Source of the DNA: an uncultured Dictyoglomota bacterium
Lineage (GTDB): Bacteria; Dictyoglomota; Dictyoglomia; Dictyoglomales; Dictyoglomaceae
Length of the DNA: 31,601 bases
Direction of reading: 5' to 3'
NCBI GenBank assembly: GCA_964654465.1
Contig: CAZZIO010000012.1
Location: 1-31,601 of the forward strand
In this document: one piece after another, positions 1-28,613 of the stretch
Layout of the letters: each line of letters opens with the position of its first letter
How positions within the stretch are numbered: the stretch's first letter is position 1
Program-made: the position numbers and the translations under genes
The notes under the pieces: generated by a model
Seen by the model: only the letters and a program-made list of their open reading frames with translations
Told to the model about the DNA's origin: nothing
Databases searched by the model: none

Positions 1-51
1 TTGAAGGCTATTAATATATTAGAGAAATATGTAGGGGGAGAAAAAAAATGA
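1..51 (+). CDS. 3' end of upstream gene (partial, ...LKAINILEKYVGGEKK*), probably BREX-4 BrxP (PAPS reductase/DUF4007)
   Basis: Frame 1 is open from base 1 to TGA at 49-51, overlapping the brxC ATG (ATGA, 48-51). Identity is inferred only from canonical type 4 BREX gene order. Confidence 0.5.
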   Translation: MKAINILEKYVGGEKK

Positions 52-3000
52 GATATGAAGAAATAATTGGCCTTCATGAATATTTTCAGCCAGTTTATGA
101 TATCATTCAAGAACCAAAAAACTACTGGAAACAGTTTATTCCAACAAAATCTTTTTTAGAAATATTAGAGAAATTTCTTAATTCATTAGAAGCAACAAAT
201 CCTAAGGATAGAAAATCTATTTGGATTCAAGGAACATATGGAACAGGAAAAAGCCATGCAACAGGTGTAATAAAACATCTTTTATGGGATGATCCTTCTG
301 AAATAGATGATTATCTCAGAAATATTGAAAAAGTACAATTAAGAGAGAGACTTAAAAATTTTAGAAAAGAAAATAGAGTACTCCCTGTTACTCTAAAAGG
401 TATTTCTGGTATATATTCTCCAAAAGAATTTAGCTTAATAATTGAAATAGCGGTTAAAGAATCCTTAAAAAAGTACAACATTTCAGTGATAGCAGAAAGT
501 GAATTTGATAAATATTTAAAATACATAGATGATCCAAAAATCAATTGGCAAGATGTTATAGAGGGAAATCCACATTTAAAAAGCCTTGTTGGCGATATAA
601 ATGGTCTTAAAAATAAATTACATCAGAATGATCCTGAAATAATAAAATTAATAGAGGAAGCATTAGGAGATTTAAAAATTGTTCATCCCAATATAGAGGA
701 TTGGCTTAGTGAAACACTGAAAAATTTAAGTGATCAAGGTATAAAATATATGACCATATATTGGGATGAATTTACTCCTCTTTTAGAGCTTTCTCAAAGC
801 CCTGCACTGCTTAATATTCTTCAAAATATAGCAGAAAAAAGTTTCAATGAAAATATATTTCTTTTTATAATATCTCACAGACACCCTCAACAAACTCAAA
901 TTGAAAAAGAAGATCAAGAAAAAGTATTAGGAAGATTTTTAAGCATAAACTACTTTATGGAAAATATTACCACGTTCCATATAGTTTCGAAAACTATAGA
1001 CAAAAAGAGAGAGGAAGATTGGAAAAAATTAAGAGATAATATTTATAACACGTATCCTGGATTAAATAAAGTATTAAATAAGCTCGTACCAGACAATACA
1101 GAGACCGCAAAAGTATTAAAAGATTTATTTCCTATCCATCCATACACAGCTCAACTTGCGGTAGGAATTTCAAGATACATAGGATCCACAGAAAGAAGCA
1201 TCTTTAGCTTCTTATATGATGAAGAAAAAGGTTTTATAAATTTCATAAAGAATTACCCAGATAAAAATAATGTATACCTCTTGACAGCAGATAAACTGTG
1301 GGATTACTTCATAGATGATTTAAAAAGAAGACAAGATGATAAAATAGGAAATATTTTATCAAAATATTATTCTTATCATGATTCTTTAAAAAATAAAGGT
1401 GAAGAATATCTGACCATCTTCAAAGGCATACTAATTCTAAATCTTCTACAATCAATAATTACTTTAACTGACGAATCATCTTTATTCATACCCAAACGAG
1501 AAAACATAGAAGACATGTTTTTAGGAACCCACTATAGAGACCACATAGATCAAGTTTTAGATTATATCGACAAAAATATAATTCCTAAAACCCCAGATGG
1601 ATTATATCGAATATTCCAAACTCCTCTCCCAGAAGAAGAATTAAGTAGGGAAAAAGAATCTGCAAGAAGAGAATTTGAAGATATAACTAAATTAATAAAT
1701 GATGATACTAAAAACTCTCTGTTAGATACCATTAAAAACAACCTTTTAAGAGAACCGAATCTAAATATATACTGGGCAGGACTTTCTGAAAATGAGATCT
1801 TAAGAAAAATAGACAGAGATTATAGAAATTCATATGAAATAAATATTGCTCTTTTCCTCCCAAAAATCAATGAGGAAATATCAATAATCAAAAAAAATAT
1901 AAGGAAGATAATAAATGGAAATCCAAAAGCTCGAAATATAGTATTTGTAGTATCAAATAGGGAATTTGGAGAGCAAGACTATGAGAGATTATTAGAGTAT
2001 ATCGCAAGGAAAAAAGTAGCTTATAAACACTCTTTTAATGAAGAAGCCCAAAACAACGAAAAATATATAGATAAATTGATCAATATATGGATTGAAAAAG
2101 TTGAGAAAGATTTTGTTAACATATTATTTAGGGATAAAGAAGAAAAGATAACTTTCTCATCAATAGCAGATAAAATCAATAAGGATTATTCAAAAGAAAT
2201 ATTTACCTCAGGATTAGAAAATATCGAAGGTTTAACTAAAAATAGAAATCTTTGGACATTTAGAAATTCAATAAAATACGCTAAAACATTTCTTACAGTT
2301 GAGAATAGAAAGCAATTAGAAGATGAATTAAAAACCGCTTTAGATAAGCCAATATTAGAAATATTAAAATCTAAAAGTGGTGAGTATATTGTTAACAGCA
2401 ATTTCGAATTTTACAACAATATAGATCCAGATCACCCAACCTTTAAGATTTTCAAAGAGGTAGAAAACAGAATAAAAGAACATGCTGGTAAAACCTTCAA
2501 CTTAGGTGAATTATTAGAATTTTTAAAAGAACCTCCATATGGTATTTATCCTAATATAATACATTATGCCTTATTAGGATTCGTTTTAAGACCACATACA
2601 AATAAATTATATGAGACAGGAACAGGCAAAAAAGTAAACCCAACAGTTATGGAAGATAAAATCAAAGATATTTTTGAATATTTTACTAAGGGGAAAGAAA
2701 AAGAAAAGTTAGAAGTAAGGCTTGGAACTCAAAATGAGTTAGAACTTACTGAAATTTTAAAAGATATTTTTGGATTAAAGGAGGCTGAAAATCTAAATAA
2801 AGCGAAGTGGGAAATAAGAAATTGGATTAAAGAAGTAAATCTACCTATTTGGAGTTTAAAATATTTACCACAACAAAACGAAGGTGTAACAATAGCTATT
2901 AAAACAATTGAATATTTAAGTAAAAGTATCGATAAAGAATTAAGCGAAGAGAATGTTATAAAATATCTTCAATTATTTAAGAATGTAAAAACTGATTTAA

Positions 3001-4226
3001 AACTAATTTTGAAGAAAGAAAAAGTAAAAGAAGGATTTAAGAATTGGTTATTAACTCAGCAAAAAGAGGTAAAAATTAATGAAGAAGAAATAGAAGAAGT
3101 AATAGATTACCTATATAAGCACATGCAAGAGGAAGTTGCGTTATGGGATGAAAAAAATGTACTTTTAAAATTGAAGGACTGGGCGAAAGAGAAAGACAAA
3201 GAGAGATATAAAATTGAATTTATAAACAATTTATGTAATATATTTAATCTGCAGAAAAGAGATAATATTCAAGAGCTAAGGGAAGATATCAAGAATTATA
3301 TAAATAACAATTTAAGATATCCCTTGTGGAGCATAAAGTATGTTTTAAAACTTGATGAAATAAACCACATAATCAATTTCTTGGAAGAGTTTATAAGAAG
3401 TAATAAAGATCCATCTCAAGAAGATATAATAAACTTCTCTAATTTACTTCCTACATGTGAAAAAATCTTGTATTTAAATCTTAATCCAGAAACAGCGGAA
3501 AAAGGCATCCAGGAATTACTAAAAACAAATAGTAAAAAATTGTTAGATAATAATGAAATTAATGACTTTTTAGATTTTACAAGGGAAAATCTAAAAAAGG
3601 ATATTTACTTATGGGAAGAAAAAGATTTAAAAAATTCTCTTACTTTGTATGAATTTCTAAAACTAATAGCAGAGCTCTTTAATATAGATAAAAATTACAT
3701 AAAGATACCAGATGATCTAAAAATAAAAATAAAAAATCAAGTTACGAATAAGATATATCCCTTCTGGGCCGTTGGATTAATAGATGATAATTTAGTTAAG
3801 AAAACAACCGAGGAACTATCATATTATATAACATCAGATAAAAACTATTCATTAACCGACATAGAAAGTTTATACCAAATGCTTGAAAATAATAAAGAAA
3901 AAATTAAATCCATTTGGGAATCCACTCAGATAGAAAAATTATATAAAGAATGGTTGAGAGAGATTTTAAAAACCACGGAAGATGTATCTAAAATAGTAAG
4001 TGAGATTAAAGCCAAAATACGAAACGAAGATTACTACTGGAAAAAGACTGTCGTAGAAAATCTAATTCTGAAAGAAAAAGAAAATCTCATAAGAATATTG
4101 AACAAAGAGAAAAAGGAAAAAATAGCACAAAAGATAAAAAATACTAATAGAGACTTAAGAGAAATATTAGTAAAACTCATAGATAAATATCCCCAAATTA
4201 TTTCTGATCTAGAGGAACTTCTTTAA
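48..4226 (+). CDS. brxC: BREX P-loop ATPase BrxC (type 4 / SspC-like), 1392 aa, with C-terminal helical repeats
   Basis: Walker A GTYGTGKS, Walker B TIYWDEF, LFPIHPYT and ERSIFSFL motifs typical of BrxC/PglY-like ATPases; directly upstream of pglZ. Confidence 0.85.
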   Translation: MRYEEIIGLHEYFQPVYDIIQEPKNYWKQFIPTKSFLEILEKFLNSLEATNPKDRKSIWIQGTYGTGKSHATGVIKHLLWDDPSEIDDYLRNIEKVQLRERLKNFRKENRVLPVTLKGISGIYSPKEFSLIIEIAVKESLKKYNISVIAESEFDKYLKYIDDPKINWQDVIEGNPHLKSLVGDINGLKNKLHQNDPEIIKLIEEALGDLKIVHPNIEDWLSETLKNLSDQGIKYMTIYWDEFTPLLELSQSPALLNILQNIAEKSFNENIFLFIISHRHPQQTQIEKEDQEKVLGRFLSINYFMENITTFHIVSKTIDKKREEDWKKLRDNIYNTYPGLNKVLNKLVPDNTETAKVLKDLFPIHPYTAQLAVGISRYIGSTERSIFSFLYDEEKGFINFIKNYPDKNNVYLLTADKLWDYFIDDLKRRQDDKIGNILSKYYSYHDSLKNKGEEYLTIFKGILILNLLQSIITLTDESSLFIPKRENIEDMFLGTHYRDHIDQVLDYIDKNIIPKTPDGLYRIFQTPLPEEELSREKESARREFEDITKLINDDTKNSLLDTIKNNLLREPNLNIYWAGLSENEILRKIDRDYRNSYEINIALFLPKINEEISIIKKNIRKIINGNPKARNIVFVVSNREFGEQDYERLLEYIARKKVAYKHSFNEEAQNNEKYIDKLINIWIEKVEKDFVNILFRDKEEKITFSSIADKINKDYSKEIFTSGLENIEGLTKNRNLWTFRNSIKYAKTFLTVENRKQLEDELKTALDKPILEILKSKSGEYIVNSNFEFYNNIDPDHPTFKIFKEVENRIKEHAGKTFNLGELLEFLKEPPYGIYPNIIHYALLGFVLRPHTNKLYETGTGKKVNPTVMEDKIKDIFEYFTKGKEKEKLEVRLGTQNELELTEILKDIFGLKEAENLNKAKWEIRNWIKEVNLPIWSLKYLPQQNEGVTIAIKTIEYLSKSIDKELSEENVIKYLQLFKNVKTDLKLILKKEKVKEGFKNWLLTQQKEVKINEEEIEEVIDYLYKHMQEEVALWDEKNVLLKLKDWAKEKDKERYKIEFINNLCNIFNLQKRDNIQELREDIKNYINNNLRYPLWSIKYVLKLDEINHIINFLEEFIRSNKDPSQEDIINFSNLLPTCEKILYLNLNPETAEKGIQELLKTNSKKLLDNNEINDFLDFTRENLKKDIYLWEEKDLKNSLTLYEFLKLIAELFNIDKNYIKIPDDLKIKIKNQVTNKIYPFWAVGLIDDNLVKKTTEELSYYITSDKNYSLTDIESLYQMLENNKEKIKSIWESTQIEKLYKEWLREILKTTEDVSKIVSEIKAKIRNEDYYWKKTVVENLILKEKENLIRILNKEKKEKIAQKIKNTNRDLREILVKLIDKYPQIISDLEELL

Positions 4227-6566
4227 ATGGACAATATAAATGACTTGTTAAGAACAATTGAGAAAGATAGGAAAACATCGAGTATAACTTATAATAGATT
4301 TCCTGTAAGGTTTATATTGTTAAATAATTACTGGGATCTAAAAAATCTTATAAATGCGCTACGATCTATTTTAGATATAGATTTCTTACATTTAACAGAT
4401 TTTGATATATTTAAATATTATAACGATGCATGGATCACCATATATGATATAATAAATTTAATAAATAATCTTAATCCCCAAAAAGATTATCTTCTCTTAT
4501 CGATATCAGAATATTGCAGGTTTCTCTCTGATGATAGCTTTTACTCTCTTTTAAGTAGTATTATGAGTATAGAAAACACTCAAAATAACCTTGAAAGAAG
4601 AATATATATACCATTAATAGGAATAAAAAATAAATTTGAAAAGATCTTTTTTGATAAATATCCAAGAAGAAGAGAGATAATACCTTTTTGGATATTAGAA
4701 GGGAAAAGAGAAAAATACAATTTATATTTCATTAACTTTTTAGATAAAGCAGAAACTCAAGACACACTTATTATCGAAAATTCAAAAGACTTTCTAAATA
4801 TATGGGAAAAGAATTTAAATAACTATCTTAATATTGTATGTCTTTCTAAAACATTAAATACACACTCTGACCATGTAATAAGTGATGATATATTTGATGT
4901 TTACAAAATTAAAAATTATAAAGAATACTTAAACCATCTATTTTACATTAATATCCCCATAGAATACAAAGAAGAAGAGAAAGACAATTGGGAAATATTA
5001 TGTAAAACACTACAAAATAAAAAATTCACAAACTTTTATGAATTAACAGAAGATCTTCTAAATGTTAAAAAGATCAATATAACAGACCTATTAAAGCTTT
5101 GGGTTAAAAATGATAAGTTCCATTTATGGCTTCTAAAGAATTATATAATAAACAAGGAAGAATACAAAGAAACTTATGCATCAAGAGTTCTTAAATCCAT
5201 AGAAAGCTACGAAATAAAAGAAATTTTAAGTAAATATTACACCCTCATCTTTGAAGATTCAAAACCTAAAAATGATATTTTAGAAGAAAGAAGTAATACC
5301 CTCAAAAATCTATTAAAAGAAGATATAAATAATATAGAGCCTATAATCTTAGAAATTGATAAAATTCTCAAAGAAAAAAGTAATATTTTACCTCCAGACA
5401 AGTTTAAAATCTATTTAACTGGAACCACATATTTCGAAAAATCATGGATTATGCAAAATTACGATAAAGTAGAAAACTTAAAAGAACTATATCCTGAACT
5501 TTACTATTACTTAGAAAAAGATGTTAAAATTGTGAATTTAAAACCAGACCAAAATTGGATTTTAGATTACTTTAAAGAATACCATATCTCGAGATTAAAA
5601 AATAAGCCTACAGAAAGACTATTAGAAATTCTTAATGAAAAAAATAGAAATGAAGATACTTTTTACGAATGGTATCATTCCTTTCCTAAAGTTAATAATT
5701 ACAAAATAAAAGATGAATATGAAAAATTATGGATTGATGCTTTATCCTTAGAATTTCTACCTTTAATAGCAGGAATATTAGAAGAAAAAGGATACAAAAT
5801 AGAAGCTCATATAGTAGTATCTAATCTCCCTACAATAACAGAGATAAATAAATTTGAAGTAATTGAAAGAATAGATACTCTAGATAAATTTATCCACGAA
5901 AAAAAAGATCCAAATATATATCCAGGACTGATTAAAGAGATGGAAATAATAAAGAATATAATAAAAAACAAACTTCTAACTGGAAGTGATAATTTTGTTA
6001 TATTATCAGATCATGGATTTACTGCCTTTTCCAATAAAGTTTTACAAAATCAGAAACTTCCAGAACTTAAGGTAAAAGAAAATGAGCCAAGGTATGCTGT
6101 ATTAGAGAAAGATATAGCTCTTAAAGCGAAAGAAGATATAATAGTTTATGACCATGATGATAAAAAATATGTTATAGCATTAAAATACACCTCTTTTTCC
6201 TATCCTCAATCTCTTGAAACACATGGAGGTGCAACTCCAGAAGAAGTGTTAGTACCTATTATTTATGTGACAAAATCAAAAGTAAAGGAAAAAATACCAT
6301 CTTATAAAATTGATATACCAGATAAAGAAGTTAGTATTAGAAATCCTCTTCTAATTTTCTACATCACTCCGTTTATAGAAGATGTCGTAGTTAAATACAA
6401 AGGTGAAAAGTTTGAACCCATATATTCAGAAGAAAAAAAGTGTTATACAATTAATTTAAGTAAACTCAAACCTGGTACCTATGAATTAACTTTTCATATA
6501 AGAGGTTATGAGGAAAAACATAAAATTATAATAAAAGGAGGCATACAAGAAAAAGAGTTATTATGA
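4227..6566 (+). CDS. pglZ: BREX-4 type PglZ alkaline-phosphatase-superfamily protein
   Basis: PglZ motifs LWIDALSLEF, LPTITEINK, ILSDHGFT and HGGATPEEVLVP; C-terminal Ig-like tail; ATG abuts the brxC stop (TAAATG). Confidence 0.92.
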   Translation: MDNINDLLRTIEKDRKTSSITYNRFPVRFILLNNYWDLKNLINALRSILDIDFLHLTDFDIFKYYNDAWITIYDIINLINNLNPQKDYLLLSISEYCRFLSDDSFYSLLSSIMSIENTQNNLERRIYIPLIGIKNKFEKIFFDKYPRRREIIPFWILEGKREKYNLYFINFLDKAETQDTLIIENSKDFLNIWEKNLNNYLNIVCLSKTLNTHSDHVISDDIFDVYKIKNYKEYLNHLFYINIPIEYKEEEKDNWEILCKTLQNKKFTNFYELTEDLLNVKKINITDLLKLWVKNDKFHLWLLKNYIINKEEYKETYASRVLKSIESYEIKEILSKYYTLIFEDSKPKNDILEERSNTLKNLLKEDINNIEPIILEIDKILKEKSNILPPDKFKIYLTGTTYFEKSWIMQNYDKVENLKELYPELYYYLEKDVKIVNLKPDQNWILDYFKEYHISRLKNKPTERLLEILNEKNRNEDTFYEWYHSFPKVNNYKIKDEYEKLWIDALSLEFLPLIAGILEEKGYKIEAHIVVSNLPTITEINKFEVIERIDTLDKFIHEKKDPNIYPGLIKEMEIIKNIIKNKLLTGSDNFVILSDHGFTAFSNKVLQNQKLPELKVKENEPRYAVLEKDIALKAKEDIIVYDHDDKKYVIALKYTSFSYPQSLETHGGATPEEVLVPIIYVTKSKVKEKIPSYKIDIPDKEVSIRNPLLIFYITPFIEDVVVKYKGEKFEPIYSEEKKCYTINLSKLKPGTYELTFHIRGYEEKHKIIIKGGIQEKELL

Positions 6567-7996
6567 ACAAACTCAGTAATTTAGATGAAAAAATTAAAAA
6601 AGTTTTTCCTGATGTATCCCTCTTAAAAATTAAAGAGAATTATAGCGTTTTTAATGGTAAAAATCTTCCATCTTTTATTAAAGATTGGCTTATTAGAAAG
6701 TTTTCTGATGATGAAGGAAAGGTATATAAAGAAGAAATAATAGACTTCATTGATAAACATATTCCCCAAAAAGAATCAGCCAAAAAACTTAAAGGTACTC
6801 TCATGTATAATAAAGAATCTATAGATATATTAACAAGAGTATCAATAGAACCTGACATTAAAAAAGGAATTTTCAAATTCTCCATTCCTGACCTTGAAAT
6901 AAAAGATTACGAAGGAAAAGTTATGGAACATGTCATTGAAAAACATCCAGAATTGAAAGGTGGAGAAATTTGGGGAGTTTTTACTCTTAGATATATAGCA
7001 GATACGAAAGAAAACTTTATCGCCATAATAGGATATAAGCCTTTTAAACCTTATGACATAGACTTAGAATACTTTAAGGAAGGAAGAAAAGAATTTGCTC
7101 TTGAAGAATGGGTAGATTTATTAATAAGATCTATGGAATATAATCCTATTGGATTTGCTAGTTTTGAACAAAAGTTACAATTTATATCAAGACTCCTTGT
7201 CTTTGTAGAGCCAAGATTAAATATGATCGAACTTGCCCCAAAAGGAACAGGAAAATCATATATTTTTAATAATCTTAGTAAGTATGGATGGTGTGTAAGT
7301 GGAGGAAAGGTAACAAGAGCAAAAATGTTTTACGATATGGGAAAAAATATTCCTGGATTCATAACAAGATATGATTTTGTAGCTTTTGATGAAGCACAAA
7401 CCATAGAATTCTCAAACGATGAAGAAATGAGAGCTGCATTAAAAAGTTACTTAGAATTGGGCAAATTTACTATTGGAAACTACCACGGAGAATCAACAGC
7501 TGGATTTATACTTCTTGGTAATATTCAACTAGATAGCAATTTAAATCCTATAAATCCCATTTATTTTAAAGATTTACCAGAATCTTTTCATGAATCAGCC
7601 TTATTTGATAGGTTTCACGGTTTTATAGAGGGCTGGAGACTTCCAAGAATTAGAGAGGACTTAAAAATAAGTGGATATGCATTAAATGTTGAGTATTTCA
7701 CAGAAATATTGCATAGTCTAAGAGATCGCTCAGAATACTCTTCTATTGTAGACGATATGTTAGAAATACCTCCTAAAGCTGATACAAGAGATACTACCGC
7801 CATAAAGAAATTAGCCACAGGTTATCTGAAATTATTATTTCCTCATGTGAAAGATCCAAGTGACATTGATAAAGATGACTTTGAAATTTTTTGCTTAAAA
7901 CCTGCTCTTGAAAAAAGAGGCATAATAAGAAAACAACTACACTTGATGGATCCTGAATATAAAGAGGAACTACCTGATATAAAGGTGAAGAAGTAA
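6563..7996 (+). CDS. brxL: BREX BrxL-like AAA+ ATPase (short form, no Lon protease domain)
   Basis: EEWVDLLIRSM, RLLVFVEPRLNMIELAPKGTGKS (Walker A), YDFVAFDE (Walker B), SALFDRFHGFIEGW; ATGA overlap with pglZ. Confidence 0.9.
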   Translation: MNKLSNLDEKIKKVFPDVSLLKIKENYSVFNGKNLPSFIKDWLIRKFSDDEGKVYKEEIIDFIDKHIPQKESAKKLKGTLMYNKESIDILTRVSIEPDIKKGIFKFSIPDLEIKDYEGKVMEHVIEKHPELKGGEIWGVFTLRYIADTKENFIAIIGYKPFKPYDIDLEYFKEGRKEFALEEWVDLLIRSMEYNPIGFASFEQKLQFISRLLVFVEPRLNMIELAPKGTGKSYIFNNLSKYGWCVSGGKVTRAKMFYDMGKNIPGFITRYDFVAFDEAQTIEFSNDEEMRAALKSYLELGKFTIGNYHGESTAGFILLGNIQLDSNLNPINPIYFKDLPESFHESALFDRFHGFIEGWRLPRIREDLKISGYALNVEYFTEILHSLRDRSEYSSIVDDMLEIPPKADTRDTTAIKKLATGYLKLLFPHVKDPSDIDKDDFEIFCLKPALEKRGIIRKQLHLMDPEYKEELPDIKVKK

Positions 7997-7997
7997 A

Positions 7998-8558
7998 ATG
8001 ATGGACTCAGATTTTTGGGAACTCGAAAATCTGTTAAGTGAAATAGATGAATTTCTAAACAAATATGAAGAAAATAAAGAAGAAATTCAAGAAATTATAT
8101 TGTCTTTCATAGAAAGAATAGAAAAAACCAATAAAGAGCTTATGAATATTTCAAAAAAATTAGAATATATTACTTTAAAGCTAAAAAATCTTGTTAATAA
8201 CTCCCAATCACCTTCTAAATATGAAGAAAAAGGTAATAGAATTAAAGGAGAAATAACTCCCAAAGCTTTTTTTAGGCTCCATATACTTCTCACATTATAT
8301 GAATTAGGAGGTAAAGCCCCCGCCTTAGAGGTCCATAAAAAATTAGAAAAAAAATTAAATGATCTATTAACCCAAAAGGATAAAGAACTATTACCCTCAG
8401 GAACTGTAAGATGGATTAAAAATGTAGATTGGTGTAGACTAATATTAGTACATGAAGGCTTGATGAAAAGAGATTCTCCTCGTGGTATATGGGAACTTTC
8501 TGAGAAAGGATATAAATATATAAAAAAATATTTAGAAGAAATCAATGGACGAGAATGA
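7998..8558 (+). CDS. Coiled-coil + Mrr N-terminal-type winged-helix protein with no nuclease domain
   Basis: C-terminal half ILLTLYELGG...LLPSGTVRWIKNVDWCRLILVHEGLM...RGIWELSEKG matches the Mrr_N wHTH pattern; heptad-like N-terminus; starts 1 nt after the brxL stop. Confidence 0.8.
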   Translation: MMDSDFWELENLLSEIDEFLNKYEENKEEIQEIILSFIERIEKTNKELMNISKKLEYITLKLKNLVNNSQSPSKYEEKGNRIKGEITPKAFFRLHILLTLYELGGKAPALEVHKKLEKKLNDLLTQKDKELLPSGTVRWIKNVDWCRLILVHEGLMKRDSPRGIWELSEKGYKYIKKYLEEINGRE

Positions 8559-9549
8559 TTTATACTTAGAAAGCCTATTAGATGAGATTAATAACTTTTT
8601 AAAAAGCAAAGAGCAAGAAGAAGCACAAACAAAACCCCAACAAGTATTCCCTAAGAAAAGTAAATTTAAACTTAAAGAACACAAAGATGATTTTGAGGAG
8701 ATTCATTTTAAAGACCCCTCAAAATATGAATTACTCTCTCCTATTCAAGAAAAAGAATTATTTAAAAGAGTTGAACAAGGAGATAAAGAAGCAAAAGAAA
8801 AGTTAATACTGTCCAATCTCAAATTAGTATATTCTATTGCAAAAAGATATAAAGGAAGAGGTTTAGAGTTCTCAGACTTAATACAAGAAGGATGCATAGG
8901 TCTCATAAACGCTGTTGAAAAATTTGATTGGAGAAAAGGTTATAAATTCTCTACCTACGCAACGTGGTGGATAAAACAAGCAATTACAAGGGCTATTGCA
9001 GAAAAGGGTGGAACAATTTATGTTCCTATCCATCTTCAAGAAAAGATAAATTATATTAAAAGATGTAGAAAAATACTTATGGAAAAGTTAAATAGAGAAC
9101 CAACTATCCACGAATTATCAACATACTCAGGATATAGTAGAGATTCATTAAAGTCTCTCATGGATTGTAATTTTACAACTATTCCATACGATGTTCAAAT
9201 AGAGAATCTTTCAGAGGAAGAATTTGAGAGTATCTATCCCTTAATAGACCAAAACGAAGATTTTACATTAACTATAGATGACATTTTACCTAATAATGAC
9301 CAAAATTATGACCTCTTCTCCCAAATGGAAATAACATTTATAAAAAAGATTATAGATGAGTTATTAAATACTCTATCAGAAAGAGAAAGAGAAATTATAT
9401 ACCTAAGATTTGGCTTTAAAGATGGAACTCCCAAAACCCTCGAAGAAATAGGTAAAATATTTGGAATAACAAGAGAAAGGGTAAGACAGATAGAGGCAAA
9501 AATTATAAAGAAATTTAAGCATCCTTCAAAAAGAAAATACCTAAAATAG
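8545..9549 (+). CDS. RpoD/RpoS-like sigma-70 family RNA polymerase sigma factor (accessory copy)
   Basis: Region 2 [58 protein letters not shown]; region 3 LNREPT; region 4.2 [20 protein letters not shown]; overlaps the previous gene by 14 nt. Confidence 0.93.
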   Translation: [334 protein letters not shown]

Positions 9550-9580
9550 GGTAGCAAGTAATTTAAACTTGCTACCCTAT
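9546..9580. terminator. Bidirectional intrinsic terminator
   Basis: Perfect 14-bp stem ATAGGGTAGCAAGT / ACTTGCTACCCTAT with a 7-nt loop, between convergent genes and flanked by T/A runs. Confidence 0.85.
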
Positions 9581-9588
9581 AATCTTTT

Positions 9589-10251
9589 TTACCAAACTAT
9601 CTTTACAAAGGCTGTTTTCCCTTCTTGAGCCACATAATCCCTTAAAACATTAGAAAATCTTATCATCATTTTATCTCTGTTTTTCATTGTTAACTTCTTC
9701 AAAAATGGATATGGCTTTAAATTTACATATACTCCTTGCAATTCTATACTCACGTCTCTCTTCAGATCATTTATAAGCATTACTTCAATAGACAAATCAT
9801 TTATTTCAATTGATTGATAGAATTTATTAAAAATACTACTGTTTAGCCCTTCAAAAAGAGAATTGTTGAAGTTAACATATAGATTATCATCCTTAAAAGA
9901 AAATGATATTACCCTATCCTCTACTTCTTCACCTTTTGTAAGGGGAATTTCAATATCTGCCACATAAAAGCTTTGAAGATTATTCTCTTCATACCTTACA
10001 TTTTCTACATTATCAAAATACTCTTCTAATACACTGGTAATTTCATCCTTATTTTCCTTGAAAGTATCCTTAGAGACAATTTCAAGTCTCAACAATGAAT
10101 TAACCCAAATCATATCAGTTTTACTATCATTAACAAAATCATATAGGTCACTAAGATAAATATCTGAAGAGATGTCCAACTTACAGCCTGATAATGTGAT
10201 AAAAAGACATATAATCAAAGAAACCATTATTAGCTTTTTCAATAAACCCAC
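9589..10251 (-). CDS. Hypothetical lipoprotein
   Basis: GTG start, basic N-terminus, hydrophobic stretch and lipobox LSGC. Confidence 0.8.
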   Translation of the reverse strand: MGLLKKLIMVSLIICLFITLSGCKLDISSDIYLSDLYDFVNDSKTDMIWVNSLLRLEIVSKDTFKENKDEITSVLEEYFDNVENVRYEENNLQSFYVADIEIPLTKGEEVEDRVISFSFKDDNLYVNFNNSLFEGLNSSIFNKFYQSIEINDLSIEVMLINDLKRDVSIELQGVYVNLKPYPFLKKLTMKNRDKMMIRFSNVLRDYVAQEGKTAFVKIVW

Positions 10252-10278
10252 CCCCTAATTAATTTTTTTATTATACTC

Positions 10279-10827
10279 CTACATCACTTCTATACTAAAT
10301 ATAAAACTATATGTAATTGTTTTTGCTGAATCCTTTATATATACAGGAATCTTTATTCCTACATTATAAATTCCCCTCTTAAATTCAGAATATATTTCTC
10401 CTTCTATAGAATAATAATAACTGCCCAAATAGCTATCATATTCATATTCCAAAAGGTCATAAGGAATCATATATGCTTTAACTTTCCCATAAGGAAGAAT
10501 ATTACTTACATAAAAAGGATTGTAACATGTATAGTAATAAACATCATCTGGGTTAAAACACGCTAAGTAAGTAGATTTTCCTGATGAGTAAGTAAAGGTT
10601 GCGTTACGCCAATTAATTTGCAATTCACTGCTTATCTTATTCTCCAATTCATAATATATCTTGTTTTCGTAAAATACAAAGCTTATTTTTATCAAATCAT
10701 CCTCAAAATAAAGATTTTCAGACTCCACCGGATAAAGCATCTTTACCTTTGCATGGGGCAACAAACTACATCCTGACAAAATAGCTAAAAGTAAGAATAA
10801 TATAAATATTATTAAATATTTCTTCAT
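10279..10827 (-). CDS. Hypothetical Tyr-rich lipoprotein
   Basis: Strong SD (AGGAGGTG) upstream; signal peptide MKKYLIIF... with lipobox LSGC. Confidence 0.82.
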   Translation of the reverse strand: MKKYLIIFILFLLLAILSGCSLLPHAKVKMLYPVESENLYFEDDLIKISFVFYENKIYYELENKISSELQINWRNATFTYSSGKSTYLACFNPDDVYYYTCYNPFYVSNILPYGKVKAYMIPYDLLEYEYDSYLGSYYYSIEGEIYSEFKRGIYNVGIKIPVYIKDSAKTITYSFIFSIEVM

Positions 10828-11008
10828 TTTACATCACCTCCTGTAATTAATAATAACCAGTCAAAGGGTCAAAACCTGACCTTATAGAAAAATGTAAAAA
10901 AGAATTTAATTATGGAAAATGAAAGATTAATTTCTGTTTTTTAAAAGTCAAATTTTTATTTTTTATGTTAAAATGAACTTAATAAATTTTGGGTTTTACA
11001 AAGCATCT

Positions 11009-12283
11009 ATGGATATAAAAGGTAAAATAATTATCGGAGATTCAAGAAAAATGAAAGAAGTAGATGATGAGAGTGTGGATCTTATTATCACCTCTCCTCC
11101 TTATTGGCATATAAAAGATTACGGTAAGCCTAATCAAATAGGTTATGGTCAAACCCTACACGAATACTTAAAAGATCTTTATTATGTATGGAATGAATGT
11201 TATAGGGTATTAAGAAAAGGAAGCAGATTATGCATTAATATAGGCGATCAATTTGCAAGATCCATAATTTATGGGAAATATAAAGTTATACCTTTACATG
11301 CGGAAATTATAACTCAGTGTGAAAATTTAGGTTTTGATTATATGGGAGCCATTATATGGCAAAAGAAAACGACCATGAATACTACTGGTGGTGCAAATAT
11401 AATGGGATCTTTCCCTTATCCGCCAAATGGTATTGTAGAGATTGATTATGAATTTATCCTTATTTTTAAAAAACCAGGGAAAACTAAAAAAGTTTCAAAA
11501 GAAATTAAAGAATTATCTTCCTTAACAAAAGAAGAATGGAAAGAATACTTCTCAGGACATTGGAATTTTGGGGGAGCAAAACAAATAGAACATGAAGCCA
11601 TGTTTCCTGATGAATTGCCCCGAAGACTTATTAGAATGTTTTCTTTTGTGGGAGATACTATATTAGACCCATTTCTTGGAAGCGGTACTACAGTAAAAGT
11701 TGCCTTAGAATTGGGAAGAAATGCAATAGGATATGAGATAAATAAACATTTTCTTGAAATTATTAAGAAAAAAATTGGAATGAACGAAAATTTATTAATA
11801 AAACCATTTAATGTAGAAATTATTGAGAGAGAAGAAGATATTATACTGCCAGAAATCAATTATATACCATTAATACAAGATGCCAAACCTCAGGTTGATC
11901 CCAAAAAATTCAGATTTGAAGGAGATAGATTATATAAAGTTGTTGATATTATAGATGAGGAAACATTACAGGTGGATACAGGTCTTTTTGTTAAATTTTT
12001 GGGTGTAAAAATTATAAGAAAAGAAGAAACCTTAAAATATTTAGAAAACTACCTCTTAGGAAAGAATATCATTCTAAAGTTTGACCCTAATTTTATTGAA
12101 GAAGATTATGTAAAGGCATATGTATATCTTAAAAATAAAATCTTTATAAATGCATATCTTATAAAATCAGGTTTAGGTGTTCCAGATATCACTATTCAAC
12201 ACAAGTACAAAGAAAAATTTATAAACCTTTGGAGGGAAATAGAAAATGCCAAAAGAATGGATATTAAATATGGCAACAAATAG
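11009..12283 (+). CDS. Beta-class amino-DNA methyltransferase (SPPY, probably N4-cytosine) fused to a C-terminal thermonuclease (SNase)-like domain
   Basis: Motif IV ITSPPY precedes motif I ILDPFLGSGTT (beta order); HEAMFP motif; C-terminal YKVVDIIDEETL...VKFLGV...AYVYL...FINAYLIKSGLG. The start is more likely ATG 11009 than 10973. Confidence 0.88.
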   Translation: MDIKGKIIIGDSRKMKEVDDESVDLIITSPPYWHIKDYGKPNQIGYGQTLHEYLKDLYYVWNECYRVLRKGSRLCINIGDQFARSIIYGKYKVIPLHAEIITQCENLGFDYMGAIIWQKKTTMNTTGGANIMGSFPYPPNGIVEIDYEFILIFKKPGKTKKVSKEIKELSSLTKEEWKEYFSGHWNFGGAKQIEHEAMFPDELPRRLIRMFSFVGDTILDPFLGSGTTVKVALELGRNAIGYEINKHFLEIIKKKIGMNENLLIKPFNVEIIEREEDIILPEINYIPLIQDAKPQVDPKKFRFEGDRLYKVVDIIDEETLQVDTGLFVKFLGVKIIRKEETLKYLENYLLGKNIILKFDPNFIEEDYVKAYVYLKNKIFINAYLIKSGLGVPDITIQHKYKEKFINLWREIENAKRMDIKYGNK

Positions 12284-12914
12284 ATGGGGCTTAAATAAAA
12301 AAGATAACGTTGGGCCTGTATCATTATGGATAAGAGAATGTGATCCTAAAAATCCTAATGAGTGGGAAATTTTCTATTATAGAAAACTCGAAGAGTTGTT
12401 AAAATCAAAAAATATTGAACTCTCTCCTGAAAGTTATATAAACGAATTAGGTAGGAAACTGTATATAAAGATATCTGAGGTAATGAGAGCAGAAATTGAA
12501 GAAATTACTGAAGATGATTGTATAAATTACATTAAAAATTTATTAATAAATAGAACTTTTGAAGGATACATAACTGAAAAAGAAACCATTTACAGCCAAT
12601 TAAAAAAACTTCTAAGTATAGATATAAAGCCAGCACCAGACAAATGGGATAGATTATATAATGTAGATTTCTACATAGAAATTGCAGGTAAATATATAGG
12701 AATACAAATAAAGCCAATAACTTATGAACAAACCCCAGAAATTTATAAATGGAAAGAATGGTTAAGCAGAACTCATGAAAAATTTGAGAAAGAAATTGGT
12801 GGTAAGGTTTTTATAATATTCTCTATAAAAAAAGATGGTAGAAAAGAAATCTATAATAAAGAAATAATAGAAGAAATTAAAAATGAGATTGAGAGGTTAA
12901 GAAAACAAAAATAA
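12246..12914 (+). CDS. MjaI-family type II restriction endonuclease
   Basis: N-terminal WILNMATNRWGLNKKDNVGPVS and catalytic-like DRLYNVDFYI...IGIQIKP; overlaps the MTase 3' end by 38 nt. Confidence 0.82.
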   Translation: MPKEWILNMATNRWGLNKKDNVGPVSLWIRECDPKNPNEWEIFYYRKLEELLKSKNIELSPESYINELGRKLYIKISEVMRAEIEEITEDDCINYIKNLLINRTFEGYITEKETIYSQLKKLLSIDIKPAPDKWDRLYNVDFYIEIAGKYIGIQIKPITYEQTPEIYKWKEWLSRTHEKFEKEIGGKVFIIFSIKKDGRKEIYNKEIIEEIKNEIERLRKQK

Positions 12915-13129
12915 TTTATTTAAGATATTTTAATGTGATCGTATATTCTATCAATAAATATTCTAAAAGAATAACAGAAAAGATTAAAAATCTCTACTTA
13001 GTGAATAAATATTAAAATAATAGTATAATTGAAAATAGATAAACCGAGATTATATAAAATTTTTAGATTTTGTTTTTAACACTTAAATCTTGAAAACTTT
13101 ATATAATCTCAAAAAATTAAGGAGGTAAC

Positions 13130-16030: not shown

Positions 16031-16444
16031 TTATAAAATACTTTTAAGCCAAGATTTAAAATTATATAGGTCTCTTTTTATAAGATCCCAGTTCCTGAGG
16101 AGATTATCTTTTAAAAGATTAATCTTCTCAGGGACAATCTCGTAAGTATATGCATGTCTAAATATATGTCTAAAAACTCTAAGCTCATCAAGAACAGCAT
16201 AGCTTTCTTTTGATAAAATTTTAGGTCTAATTCCATAAATCTCAACAGTCATTCTCTTTAGAAGTTCTTTATGATAATATTCAAAGTTTTCTATTTCATT
16301 TTCAAAGGTTTTGGCTATCTCTCTAAATAAATCCTCAAAAGCATTATAAAGGTTATGTAGATTGTATGCCAAGTAAATAGTCTTTTCTTTTGTTTCCAGC
16401 ACTGTTTAGTATCCTAAAAGTAAACTAATTTTCTCCTTTTTCAT
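16031..16444 (-). pseudogene. HEPN (HepT/DUF86-like) RNase toxin, disrupted
   Basis: ATG at 16444 overlaps the antitoxin stop; reads MKKEKISLLLGY* with an in-frame TAA, then continues LHNLYNAFEDLF...FRHIFRHAY (Rx4H motif). Confidence 0.8.
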
Positions 16445-25286: not shown

Positions 25287-26651
25287 ATGCAAAAACATTA
25301 TTTAAGTTATTATGAAAGATTAAAAGTGGAGGAATTGCAAAGTAAAGATGAAGGAAAAGATTTATCTACATTGAAGGAGGAAATAGAAAATATATCTAAA
25401 ATGAAAGATTGGGAAAAAAGAGAAGAGATAGCCAAAAAGTTATTAGATAAGATTCAGGCTATACCCATAAGAAAGGATTATAAATATAATGAACCATCAA
25501 AATTGGAAGAAATATTTAGAGAGTCTGATGAGGAAAAGGAAAATTATAGAGTAAAAATAACTCTTGATGAGAAACTTTTAGACAAGATCTATGGGGCTTA
25601 TTTAGGGAGAATGGCAGGATGCCTCTTAGGAAAACCTATAGAAGGTTGGCCTCGTAATAAAATATGGAATTTTTTGAAAGATACTAATAATTTCCCCATA
25701 AAAAAGTATCTTTCTTCGGATGTTGATAAAGAGATAAAAGAAAAATATGGAATTGAGGATGTAAAGTGGCGAGGATGGATTAATAAAATTGATCATATGA
25801 TTGAAGATGATGATATAAACTATACTATTCTTGGACTCTACATTTTTAAGAATTACGGAGAAAACTTCACCCCTGAAGATGTAGCTGAATCATGGCTTTT
25901 TAATCTTCCCATATTTCATACTTATACCGCAGAGAGAGTTGCTTATCAGAATCTTGTAAACTTAATTATGCCCCCTAAATCAGGAGAATTTAGAAACCCT
26001 TATAGAGAATGGATTGGCGCTCAAATAAGGGCTGATTTTTGGGGATATATAAGCCCAGGAAACCCAAAAAGATCAGCAGAATTCGCATTTAGAGACGCAT
26101 GTGTGTCTCATGTAAAAAACGGAATCTATGGAGAGATGTTTATAGCATCCTCTCTTTCTTGGGCTTTTGTATCGGATAACATAGAAGAAATAATAAAAGT
26201 AGGACTTTCTGTAGTCCCTAAAAATAGTAGATTCTATGAAGCTATTAAAAACATCATAGAATTTAAAAAAGGAGGTAAAGCTTTTGATTGGGTAAGAGAA
26301 TATATTTATGAAACCTACGAGAAGAATAGGAAAAATGAAGAATATTGGCATAATTGGTGCCATGTTTTATCAAACGCTCAAGTTGTGGTTGCATCCCTTT
26401 TTTATAGCGACCTTTCTTTTGAAAAAGGAATAACAAATGCTGTCTCTTGTGGACTTGATACTGATTGTAATGGGGCAACGGTAGGTTCCATCTTAGGAGC
26501 AATATATGGAGCAAAAAATCTTCCAGAATACTGGATAAAACCCTTAAATGACACAGTAGAGTCAGGAGTATCTGGTTATAATATTTGCAAAATTTCTGAT
26601 TTAGCCAAGGAAACACTGGATATAGTTAAAAAGATACAAAATTCAACTTAG
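25287..26651 (+). CDS. ADP-ribosylglycohydrolase family protein
   Basis: GRMAGCLLGKPIEG, EDDDINYT, WIGAQIRAD, SHVKNGIYG and GLDTDCNGATVGSILG; 18 nt after rbsK. Confidence 0.9.
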   Translation: MQKHYLSYYERLKVEELQSKDEGKDLSTLKEEIENISKMKDWEKREEIAKKLLDKIQAIPIRKDYKYNEPSKLEEIFRESDEEKENYRVKITLDEKLLDKIYGAYLGRMAGCLLGKPIEGWPRNKIWNFLKDTNNFPIKKYLSSDVDKEIKEKYGIEDVKWRGWINKIDHMIEDDDINYTILGLYIFKNYGENFTPEDVAESWLFNLPIFHTYTAERVAYQNLVNLIMPPKSGEFRNPYREWIGAQIRADFWGYISPGNPKRSAEFAFRDACVSHVKNGIYGEMFIASSLSWAFVSDNIEEIIKVGLSVVPKNSRFYEAIKNIIEFKKGGKAFDWVREYIYETYEKNRKNEEYWHNWCHVLSNAQVVVASLFYSDLSFEKGITNAVSCGLDTDCNGATVGSILGAIYGAKNLPEYWIKPLNDTVESGVSGYNICKISDLAKETLDIVKKIQNST

Positions 26652-28444
26652 AGCATTTCAAAATATTTTCTAATTTTCTGTGCCATCAACTTCCTTCTCT
26701 CTTGTAGAAAATTTAAGTAATCTATATCATTATTTTCAAGAATGGTTATAGGTATACAATGCATCTTAAAATTTTCTACAAGATCATCAAGATTATTTAT
26801 ACCTCCGTATTTCAAATTCTTAGTATTACATTGACTTATAAGCTCCTTAATATACTCTTTCGGGGGTTTATTACCTATAGCCAAATTTATCTCTGACTGT
26901 GCCATAACGTAATTAGCTATTTGGTTATAATCCTTCCGATCACTAAACCCACTCTTTTTTAGATAATCTTTCGGAAATATATGATGTACATCTCCCTTTA
27001 TAGAAATAAGATCTTCTACAGTAATATCCTTTGACAAGAAACCTTTATCTTTCATCTTTACTTGAGCTGCAAGAAAAACCTGAAAATAAGGATAATCGCT
27101 TGAAGTAATCATACTCTCTGGTAACGTAACACTCCAAAAAGAATCTGAAAGTTCTGCCTTAAAAATATTATTTATAAATTCCTCAGGATTACTTTCCTCT
27201 AATCTCTTAATATCTTCATCAAACTGAGAATCAGGCGATCCTGAATACCTTGATGTTAGTACAGACATGACAAACCACTTTCTTACATAAGATTCTATTT
27301 TAGCAGGATGTATCCCTTTCTCCTTTAATGTAAGAAACAAAGCATAGGAAAAATTCAACGGGTTATATGCTCTTATCATAGAACTATCTATGAAACCTGC
27401 AGACCTAATAATCATGATAAATTTTTTAAAATTGGCTTCATTTATATAATCAAATAATCCTTCTCTAAATTTGTTTATAGTATCCTCTATTATTTCTTCT
27501 TTATATTCCTTGGTTTTAAAATCTCTTCCAGATAATAAAGCAACTAAATCTTGTAATTTACCCCTTTTGAATTTATAAGTAAATATAGTCCTCAACAAAT
27601 CCACATATGATGGATCATATAAATCTTCTTTACTCTCTTTAAGCCATGCCATCTTTTTAAAATAATCTGTATTAGCAAACTCTTTATCGTTTTCTAAAAT
27701 TTCATGATAAAATTCAGGTTTGTCAGCTAAATAACAAAAATAATCTATAGCCTTACGAATGATATCTCCCCCATATTTATCATTGACAGCAAATTTCGAC
27801 ATGGCAAAATCAGACTGATTAAGTTGGGTACCTTTTGAATTCATTCTAATAAATATCTCTGTAACTTCCTCTAAATCTAAATCTGAGTTTAATTCAATAA
27901 CTCCTACAGGTACATTAACTATACTTCTTAGAGCATCGAGAGACAAAAATATATCATCTTTAATCACATCAGGATTAGATAAAACATAATCTTCTACTAA
28001 CTTTAAAAAATTAAAATCTTGGGAAAAAACTTTTGAAATATCTGAAATCCATTCCTTGTTCTTTTCTATAGCTGAATTTGTCACCTCGAATACTTTCTTC
28101 TTAGGATTAAAGGCTATCCTAATTTTTTTCCTCCTATAATCTTTATCTACTACCTCTTTACCTAAAACTGCGGACATTAGAGCTGTAACCCTTTGCTGTC
28201 CATCTATTAATATCTTTTTACCTTTTGACGATGTTCCGTCCTTTGCTTTCACATTAGGATTTTGCCATATAATGATATATCCCACAGGATAACCTTTATA
28301 TAATGAATCTATAAAATCTCTAACTTGAGTAGATTCCCACACAAAAGGTCGTTGTATCTCAGGAACTGCTACTTCACCAGATTGAATCCAAGAAAGTAAT
28401 GTTGATATAGGGTATTGATTAACTGAGAATTTTTGAATAATCAT
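26648..28444 (-). CDS. GmrSD-type (DUF262 + DUF1524/HNH-like) modification-dependent restriction protein
   Basis: PEIQRPFVW, LIDGQQRVT and FIRMNSKG (DUF262); DVHHIFPK...NQIANY...N (His-Me finger); SD GGAGG. Confidence 0.88.
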   Translation of the reverse strand: MIIQKFSVNQYPISTLLSWIQSGEVAVPEIQRPFVWESTQVRDFIDSLYKGYPVGYIIIWQNPNVKAKDGTSSKGKKILIDGQQRVTALMSAVLGKEVVDKDYRRKKIRIAFNPKKKVFEVTNSAIEKNKEWISDISKVFSQDFNFLKLVEDYVLSNPDVIKDDIFLSLDALRSIVNVPVGVIELNSDLDLEEVTEIFIRMNSKGTQLNQSDFAMSKFAVNDKYGGDIIRKAIDYFCYLADKPEFYHEILENDKEFANTDYFKKMAWLKESKEDLYDPSYVDLLRTIFTYKFKRGKLQDLVALLSGRDFKTKEYKEEIIEDTINKFREGLFDYINEANFKKFIMIIRSAGFIDSSMIRAYNPLNFSYALFLTLKEKGIHPAKIESYVRKWFVMSVLTSRYSGSPDSQFDEDIKRLEESNPEEFINNIFKAELSDSFWSVTLPESMITSSDYPYFQVFLAAQVKMKDKGFLSKDITVEDLISIKGDVHHIFPKDYLKKSGFSDRKDYNQIANYVMAQSEINLAIGNKPPKEYIKELISQCNTKNLKYGGINNLDDLVENFKMHCIPITILENNDIDYLNFLQERRKLMAQKIRKYFEML

Positions 28445-28613
28445 TTCTTATATCCTCCGTCTGATCCTAAAATATAATAACATATATAGGATATCATAAT
28501 AAAAAGAAGACTATCAATCCATTAATTTTCCAAATATTACTCAATTTGTTATTTATTAAAAATTGTGTCATACTATTTATGGGACAAAATTATCCCCAAT
28601 TAGGAGGTATATT

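Follow-up and report, generated by a model that had tools for sequence, protein, structure and literature searches.

To our knowledge, the control of bacteriophage exclusion (BREX) systems and the mechanism by which they stop phages are still open questions, and the phosphorothioate-based type 4 is the least studied type. In the published text available to us, which is partial for all sources cited here by PMC number, type 4 BREX is described as a phosphorothioate-modifying system encoded by brxP-brxC-pglZ-brxL (PMC12839542, PMC12914056). In type 1 BREX, a small DNA-binding regulator, BrxR, is encoded with the system (PMC9122589). A sigma factor dedicated to an anti-phage locus is represented by DdvS/DdvA, where the sigma factor is encoded with its CBASS-CRISPR island and governs it via a partner protein (PMC11506125). 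Here, we analyze a stretch of 31,601 nt from an uncultured Dictyoglomota bacterium (referred to as the window; G000:C12:1-31601, where the source assembly G000 comprises 1.91 Mb in 72 contigs). A type 4 BREX operon in the window ends with genes for a winged helix-turn-helix (wHTH) protein and for a sigma-70 factor, and these two unrelated proteins start with a leader of the same kind, 23 residues in length, which may be a shared docking helix.

The locus resembles the described systems only in part. The wHTH protein is, like BrxR, a small DNA-binding regulator encoded with BREX, but BrxR is a wHTH protein with a WYL domain, not with Mrr_N, and has neither a sigma partner nor a shared leader according to the available text (PMC9122589). 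DdvS/DdvA are a sigma factor of the extracytoplasmic function type and a transmembrane anti-sigma factor, whereas the window codes for an RpoD-like sigma factor and a soluble winged-helix neighbor that have a leader in common. In the literature searched, including the available text of PMC12839542 and PMC12914056, a sigma-70 gene, an Mrr_N protein or a shared leader is not mentioned for type 4 BREX, although the supplementary neighborhood tables of PMC12839542 may list them. The wHTH and sigma genes are the last two genes of the operon brxC-pglZ-short brxL-wHTH-sigma-terminator, which has the following features.

48..4226, + strand: brxC/pglY ATPase gene of type 4 BREX, first gene on the contig (PADLOC BrxC, E 4.5e-261)
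4227..6566, + strand: pglZ (PADLOC PglZ, E 7e-105)
6563..7996, + strand: short brxL, 477 aa, with BrxL_N and ATPase domain (Pfam BrxL_ATPase 1.5e-114, BrxL_N 1.2e-22)
8001..8558, + strand: wHTH gene, 185 aa, with Mrr_N domain; alternative ATG at 7998
8001..8069, + strand: wHTH leader, 23 codons, predicted acidic amphipathic helix, net charge -7 (35.2 bits with the leader profile)
8545..9549, + strand: sigma-70 gene, RpoD-like, 334 aa, overlapping the wHTH gene by 14 nt (Pfam)
8545..8613, + strand: sigma leader, 23 codons, net charge -5 (34.1 bits with the leader profile)
8617-8688, + strand: sigma linker, ~25 residues, disordered in the AlphaFold2 (AF2) model
9546..9590, + strand: terminator-like hairpin, 14 pairs and a T run, directly 3' of the sigma stop codon

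A preliminary description of this DNA had reported the likeness of the two leaders, and both their positions and their alignment are correct: the first 23 residues align without gaps at 11/23 identities, with a BLOSUM62 score of 46. A shuffle test, as proposed there, was run with 200,000 in-register shuffles of sigma residues 2-23. At least 11 identities were reached in 0.022% and a score of at least 46 in 0.0075% of the shuffles, and because such values are rare, the likeness is not a composition effect; it is real and not due to chance. The pair score is 41 when Met is disregarded, and this value was used to scan all 1,179,831 stop-free 23-residue windows in the six frames of the 1.91-Mb assembly. 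With the wHTH leader as query, three windows reach 41, which are the leader itself, the sigma leader and a paralog on contig C63 (see below). With the sigma leader as query, four windows do so: the leader itself, the wHTH leader, a decayed copy on C63 and one stretch of brxL. C63 contributes two decayed paralogs to these matches. The brxL stretch (~6706-6774, score 43) might indicate that BrxL mimics the helix, but it was taken as a chance match, since a profile made from 24 leaders leaves BrxL outside the top 15 genome segments (<5.7 bits).

The leaders have the periodicity of an amphipathic helix, as had been described: at 100 degrees, the wHTH leader has a hydrophobic moment of 0.43 and the sigma leader one of 0.39, and 3.1% and 4.1% of 5000 shuffles, respectively, come up to these values. 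It had also been stated that most identical residues use different codons. This is barely true, as codons differ for 6/11 identical residues while 5/11 (Met included) use the same codon; the nucleotide identity of the pair is 40/69. The claim that the leader is not a standard part of either protein holds for the domain models: Mrr_N covers only residues 94-176 of the wHTH protein, and the sigma domains begin at region 1.2 (residues 59-82), with no match to region 1.1 (PF03979) in any of 13 leader-bearing sigma factors. It has to be qualified for the wHTH protein, since a wider family from defense islands has a loosely similar first helix.

The recurrence of the leader was analyzed in 89 loci fetched around wHTH relatives and in 194 loci overall, which were scanned with a hidden Markov model (HMM) built from the 24 leaders. 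In 9 of the 89 loci, the gene after the wHTH gene codes for a sigma factor. Six of these loci also have BrxL on the stretch (L002, L003, L005, L010, L011 and L030); L028 has BrxL but only a remnant of the wHTH domain, and the stretches of L012 and L024 are too short to show BrxL. L006 also has BrxL, and the start of its sigma gene is cut by the contig end. When the same DNA is counted only once, the leader is present on both proteins in seven distinct loci (the window, L002, L003, L005, L006, L012 and L108). Whole-genome searches in 11 Dictyoglomota genomes revealed the short BrxL in seven and the wHTH protein in six. L010 is a metagenome contig on which brxL and the genes for the wHTH protein and the sigma factor have the same sequence as in the window. 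In its first part (1-3760), BrxC appears in two frames and PglZ is not matched between 1345 and 3761; this may be a variant or an assembly artefact.

A profile search with the two leaders had been proposed in the preliminary description; with the HMM from 24 leaders, neither the genome nor the 194 loci yielded further proteins with the tag. In the genome (8460 segments), the wHTH leader (35.2 bits) and the sigma leader (34.1 bits) are followed by the C63 paralog (28.0 bits), and the next-best segment has 8.3 bits. Among 16,674 segments of the 194 loci, every match of at least 18.6 bits is the N-terminus of a wHTH protein or a sigma factor downstream of brxL, or that of the decayed wHTH-sigma fusion of contig C63, on which no brxL match was found (L001 = L107); the next-best match has 9.3 bits. 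The HMM was built from many of the scanned rows, so that the informative part is the absence of other matches. The leader is thus one shared module that is specific to the gene pair and, as had been proposed, conserved at the protein level on both proteins in homologous loci.

Separate profiles of the sigma and wHTH leaders align over 26 columns with an hhalign probability of 96.9% (E 1.6e-10). Over 17-18 core columns, there are 4-16 identities between wHTH and sigma leaders, compared to 4-12 among wHTH leaders and 4-13 among sigma leaders. The leaders of both proteins therefore represent one sequence family, and for identical helices a common receptor is better suited than a complementary lock-and-key pair. 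A sigma search among 1.84 billion representative proteins detected five further leader-bearing representatives (P0014 and P0016-P0019; 43-50% identity), while P0010 (71% identity), which also bears the leader, was found in an earlier protein search. The leader-bearing representatives are all among the top matches, the others being ordinary RpoD-type proteins. One of them, P0018, is a bacterial-type sigma factor from a metagenome-assembled genome with an archaeal label (Candidatus Methanomethylicaceae); a mis-binned bacterial contig is the likeliest cause.

Trees were computed with the leader excluded. All 12 leader-bearing sigma factors belong to one clade (FastTree, 66 rows, Shimodaira-Hasegawa-like support 92), and all 11 leader-bearing wHTH proteins belong to one group with support 83 in a tree of 83 rows that is based on only 92 columns and from which rows with <75 domain residues (including the remnants from L028 and L030) and exact duplicates had been dropped. 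From these sequence comparisons, the leader probably has a single origin in each protein family. It has been retained across sigma factors that are only 43-50% identical overall.

The mean pairwise identity among 12 full-length leader-bearing sigma factors is 0.48 in the leader and 0.25 in the linker that follows, compared to 0.59 in region 1.2, 0.72 in region 2, 0.31 in region 3 and 0.62 in region 4. Codons were compared over the 23 positions of the leader. Between the sigma leaders of L012 and L028, 13 codons are identical, 9 differ synonymously and 1 differs non-synonymously; between those of the window and L024, the values are 16, 4 and 3. These patterns clearly point to a constraint on the sigma leader at the protein level (purifying selection). 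We are highly confident that the leader is a real module and that it is under selection.

The wHTH protein is predicted to consist of the leader helix, a long helix, a disordered linker and a winged-helix domain. Its open reading frame (7998-8558) has two in-frame ATG codons, the second of which (8001) results in the 185-aa form found in the protein collection. Mrr_N (PF14338) is assigned with 43.3 bits, well above the cut-off of 29.5. The AF2 model (23-row alignment) has a mean predicted local distance difference test (pLDDT) value of 85. It has a helix from 3 to 24, a break and a helix from 26 to 68, followed by residues 69-78 with pLDDT <50 and by the winged-helix domain (88-184) with pLDDT >94. 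The best Foldseek matches of this C-terminal domain are winged-helix DNA binders, although these are weak (E ~0.008). No solved structure matched the N-terminal part, for which a sequence search gave only coiled-coil-like matches (E >0.3). In the protein atlas, only Mrr_N clusters were found for the wHTH protein.

The wider family is widespread, lacks an NCBIfam name and comprises proteins of ~190 aa. Three helices make up their N-terminal part, the first being acidic and conserved, and an Mrr_N winged helix comes next. The family accounts for ~70 of the 89 fetched loci (L004, L007-L009 and L013-L089). Neighbors were scanned for 11 of these loci, and 9 of them adjoin modification-based defense systems, namely type IIG restriction-modification (R-M) genes with SNF2/HKD helicases, or Hma, Dnd/Pbe, Ssp or other BREX genes; L004 is without match and L007 has only HerA- or mad8-type matches. 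The first helix of the wider family is loosely similar to the leader and collinear with it in BLAST (hhalign E 0.004-0.011). The possibility that the leader is just this ordinary first helix was rejected: the leader HMM gives none of the ~70 proteins more than 9.3 bits, and MAFFT places the leader ahead of that helix as an extra element in the longer members of the clade.

The sigma factor is assigned by Pfam to region 2 (E 2.7e-23), region 4 (E 9.6e-19), region 3 (E 2.6e-06) and region 1.2 (E 0.011). Regions 2, 3 and 4 exceed the Pfam cut-offs; region 1.2 is weak in the window protein (16.2 bits vs 22) and was matched in 12 of 13 members of the leader-bearing clade at E up to 10, with a best E of 1.2e-09. 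Even at this relaxed threshold, region 1.1 was found in none of the 13. Judged from its domains, the protein is an RpoD-like sigma factor with regions 1.2, 2, 3 and 4 and without region 1.1, and the RpoD equivalog models give 276 bits vs a cut-off of 572. There are seven region-2 matches in the genome. The sigma factor of the window and the primary-type sigma factor of the same genome (contig C32) share 49% identity, and regions 2.3-2.4 and 4.2 are nearly the same. Given the established roles of these regions, the sigma factor of the window would be expected to recognize -10 and -35 elements of the housekeeping type.

The best-matching named family is MzaA (NCBIfam NF041931, 288 bits vs 800; PADLOC PDLC02203, E 2.5e-55). 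MzaA, from the anti-phage system MZA, is likewise a sigma-70 type protein in a defense system, but only the sigma part matches, far below the cut-off (profile positions 469-711 of 726), and MZA partner genes are not present. The AF2 model (44-row alignment, mean pLDDT 80) has a helix from 3 to 26 at modest confidence and then residues 25-48 with pLDDT <50, after which the sigma domains begin. The linker ranges from ~25 to 70 residues across the leader-bearing sigma factors. The protein atlas has only uninformative short clusters for the sigma N-terminus. A phage origin of the gene pair was considered and rejected, since sigma matches in viral contigs are ordinary RpoD genes without leader (one of them, L118, is adjacent to dnaG) and relatives of the wHTH protein were not found there.

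We propose that both proteins use the leader as a shared helix for docking to a common receptor, either a BREX core protein or RNA polymerase, and we hold this view with slightly less than even confidence. The leader would be a separate acidic amphipathic alpha-helix of ~20 residues at the extreme N-terminus, placed on a flexible tether, and both proteins would dock with it to the same surface of a third partner. The likeliest partner would be a core BREX protein, because the brxL gene is directly upstream, followed by the RNA polymerase core. In this way, a DNA-binding protein and a sigma factor could be held, delivered or released together. A helix that is exposed and tethered according to the models, that is selected and found on both proteins and nowhere else in the genome, and that is encoded behind brxL, is best explained in this way. 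Sequence and AF2 models also agree with the makeup of docking peptides, in which unrelated proteins of one operon have a short amphipathic helix and, next to it, a disordered linker.

The preliminary description had considered the leader a docking or address tag, and a shared, conserved and pair-specific module fits a tag better than it fits chance or recent duplication. The docking itself, the binding partner and any link to infection are what we infer from this, and the sequestration until infection that was proposed there is purely speculative. In a more specific version, a type 4 BREX core protein (e.g., a ring of short BrxL) would act as an anti-sigma-like holder, which binds, via their common helix, the housekeeping-like sigma factor together with the winged-helix protein, the latter as a sensor of modification, and releases them on meeting foreign DNA. 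In this version, which is quite unlikely, the immune complex would pass its signal straight to transcription.

Natural variants of the locus bear on this proposal. In G009, a genome that is 99% complete, brxL (4981-6429 of L194 = G009:C32:69000-76000) is followed after 7 nt by a leader-bearing sigma gene (4050-4973, 307 aa), both on the minus strand. A wHTH homolog was not found in the whole genome at an E-value of 1e-5 or better. The leader of this sigma factor has a wHTH-like start and a sigma-like end. Exactly this state would result if the two leader repeats recombined and the wHTH gene was thereby lost, which is no more than an idea. In the metagenome loci L028 (7992-8291) and L030, the wHTH gene is reduced to the winged-helix domain, abutting the brxL stop codon; leader and long helix are lost and the leader of the downstream sigma factor is intact. 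A third partner would explain why the sigma factor keeps its leader without a wHTH gene or beside a wHTH protein that has lost its N-terminus.

In the complete genome G006 from the same genus (L108 = G006:C1:112000-130000), the wHTH leader is kept beside a 171-aa "sigma" (12407-12922) that consists only of leader, linker and region 4, and two DUF4007-like pieces without the PAPS reductase (3'-phosphoadenosine 5'-phosphosulfate reductase) part are found upstream of brxC. The 4.4-kb contig C63 of the window's own assembly (L001 = G000:C63:1-4430) has an open reading frame (1140-2120, 326 aa) that continues from leader, coiled-coil part and wHTH part into sigma regions 1.2-2 as an in-frame fusion. 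Downstream of it is a remnant (~2156-2540) with a leader-like stretch and residual region 1.2, the frame of which is broken by several stop codons, and the copy is flanked by transposase-like fragments. This decayed copy is the only fusion that we observed; longer fused wHTH-sigma relatives were absent among 1976 candidates, which is weak evidence. From the arrangement of these variants, deletions and fusions appear to be favored by the presence of two leader-coding repeats, and states with only a sigma gene may therefore be recent; such states do no more than weaken the model in which the two proteins pair.

Several points weigh against a shared docking helix. (i) The receptor is a guess. (ii) All loci are from one small group (Dictyoglomota genomes and hot-spring metagenomes) and thus represent few independent events. 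(iii) The wHTH leader is less constrained and evolves faster than the sigma leader, as judged from the codon comparison of L003 and L108 (8 identical, 2 synonymous, 13 non-synonymous). (iv) In L002, the first 19 residues of the wHTH and sigma leaders are identical. Their DNA is nearly identical as well (16 codons identical, 4 synonymous, 3 non-synonymous), which points to gene conversion between the two genes, and gene conversion can keep two leaders alike without a shared partner. (v) The BREX locus of G006 looks as if it is decaying, and the C63 copy is a decayed pseudogene copy of the module. (vi) The states in G009 and L028 may be recent deletions by recombination between leader repeats, which say little on function. 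(vii) With a net charge of -5 to -7, the helix could just as well mimic DNA in cis.

Among the alternatives, a pairing module survives best, even though we consider it rather unlikely. The leaders would form a mixed homo- or hetero-oligomeric helical bundle, or the sigma leader would dock onto the helical N-terminal part of the wHTH protein, which would act as tether, co-activator or anti-sigma factor. The two genes are adjacent, co-oriented and overlapping, identical helices such as the first 19 residues in L002 suit homotypic bundles, and the wHTH leader directly precedes a 43-residue helix (H26-68 in the model), which is a possible packing surface. Leaders from the same locus are more alike than shuffled pairings, as only 9 of 720 permutations reach the observed score; however, this signal is driven by L002 and by shared ancestry. 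Pairing is further weakened by the leader-bearing sigma factor of G009, which is without a wHTH homolog in a 99%-complete genome, and by L028 and L030, where the sigma leader is kept beside a wHTH remnant without leader and helix, even if all three states possibly are recent deletions. In addition, two helices with net charges between -5 and -7 should repel each other, and ~2.5 heptads are short for a stable coiled coil in a thermophile.

The sigma leader might instead be derived from, or replace, the last acidic helix of sigma region 1.1. It would then be a DNA mimic in cis, which blocks DNA binding by the free sigma factor or sits in the polymerase channel. Through gene conversion, the helix would also have reached the wHTH protein, where it would cover the DNA-binding domain or give access to the polymerase site that the sigma leader occupies. 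Both parts taken together, this is an unlikely explanation. The leader and the acidic, variable linker are located upstream of region 1.2, exactly where region 1.1 and its linker would be expected, and the sigma factor is RpoD-like, with 49% identity to the genome's primary-type sigma factor. The second half of the leader profile aligns weakly with the N-terminal helix of the latter (5.3 bits, a value reached by 1.5% of 2000 composition-matched shuffles) and with that of a relative, P0022 (6.6 bits), and gene conversion between the two genes is directly seen in L002.

On the other hand, a direct identity of the leader with region 1.1 was not adopted, and was kept only as a rival: PF03979 is matched by none of the 13 sigma factors, and hhalign against a region 1.1 alignment from 15 RpoD proteins yields a probability <1% (E 0.09-0.22). 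BLAST between the sigma factor and the genome's primary-type sigma factor begins only at residue 48. The conserved hydrophobic positions are on one face of the helix, which argues for a specific groove and not for charge mimicry alone, and there is no reason why two different DNA-binding folds should need the same helix.

N-terminal recognition tags exist on sigma factors. The leader might thus be a degron or unfoldase tag, by which an AAA+ machine (the short BrxL ATPase, or cellular Clp or Lon) recognizes the helix and removes or remodels both regulators. According to the models, a disordered tether presents the helix in an exposed position at the N-terminus, and a gene for an AAA+ type ATPase, brxL, is always directly upstream. 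We nevertheless regard this as improbable, since the short BrxL is without a protease domain, even the long BrxL is reported to be without catalytic dyad in the available text of PMC12839542, and a general degron without further tagged proteins in the genome, as indicated by the leader profile, would be unusual.

A functionless by-product of partial duplication and repeated gene conversion between neighbors, as might be suggested by the nearly identical leader DNA in L002 and the recombination products in C63, G009, L028 and G006, is very improbable, because the leaders in the window have 11/23 identical residues at only 40/69 identical nucleotides, because the sigma leader shows 9 synonymous and 1 non-synonymous differences (L012 vs L028) and twice the conservation of the linker, and because it is kept across sigma factors with only 43-50% overall identity.

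With respect to the operon as a whole, the genes for the BrxC/PglY ATPase, PglZ and BrxL are contiguous and on one strand, as expected for a type 4 BREX operon. In this type, BrxP takes the place of the methyltransferase PglX, and there is no PglX between brxC and pglZ in the window. The best PADLOC model for the brxL product is a short BrxL of 482 positions (E 9.4e-216), and according to Pfam, the Lon-like C-terminal domain is absent from it. A BrxP (PAPS reductase) gene was not found anywhere in the window's own assembly, the contig of which begins 47 nt before brxC. In the three related genomes searched, BrxP of ~800 aa and a DUF4007-like gene are directly upstream of brxC in each case. Either BrxP is missing due to an assembly gap, or the BREX system is incapable of DNA modification. 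The wHTH and sigma genes overlap or are at most 8 nt apart in all five loci checked, which suggests co-translation, and the hairpin with its T run is the operon end.

The BREX operon is part of a defense island. Genes for a DUF7424 protein (220 aa) and for a 182-aa protein without family match (9589-10827, - strand) separate it from a type II R-M pair (10973-12914), which consists of overlapping genes for an N6_N4 methyltransferase (436 aa) and an MjaI-family endonuclease (222 aa). Further content of the island includes a HepT-like protein (16031-16402, - strand), a protein with a GmrSD N-terminal domain (26648-28444, - strand) and a 416-aa serpin (28563-29813, + strand).

The reach of these observations is limited, because the leader has been seen only in Dictyoglomota and in a few lineages from hot-spring metagenomes. 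They are of interest because two regulators are marked as a unit by a 20-residue helix, and one of them, the sigma factor, should recognize promoters of the housekeeping type. Docking of both regulators to a BREX protein or RNA polymerase via the helix would, if it occurs, directly connect the immune complex with the transcription machinery. A short portable tag from a thermophile could also serve protein docking.

When known N-terminal elements of sigma factors are considered, region 1.1 (PF03979) is like the sigma leader in being an acidic helical element of RpoD-like sigma factors that is followed by an acidic linker and located upstream of region 1.2. However, it is a helical domain and not a single helix, PF03979 or profile similarity is not detected, and the leader also occurs on a protein that is not a sigma factor. 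The pro-sequences of the sporulation factors pro-sigma E and pro-sigma K (PMC13174948, PMC6242693, as far as their available text goes) are likewise N-terminal sigma extensions, and as in these cases, the leader could hold the sigma factor inactive until a signal arrives. In contrast to them, no cognate protease gene is seen in this operon, there is no known cleavage, and the extension is shared with a second protein.

A leader that is common to a sigma factor and a winged-helix protein was not reported in the literature searched. Proposed as an analogy, it may work most like the encapsulation peptides of microcompartment cargo (PMC12339742, PMC11157265). As described in the available text, these are also short terminal amphipathic helices with a disordered linker on unrelated operon mates, and they serve as a common address to one receptor. 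The carriers are different, as they are two DNA-binding regulators of a defense operon and not enzymes, and shell genes are not known here, though none were searched for. If the proposal is true, the leader would be a new case of shared address peptides, outside of metabolic organelles.

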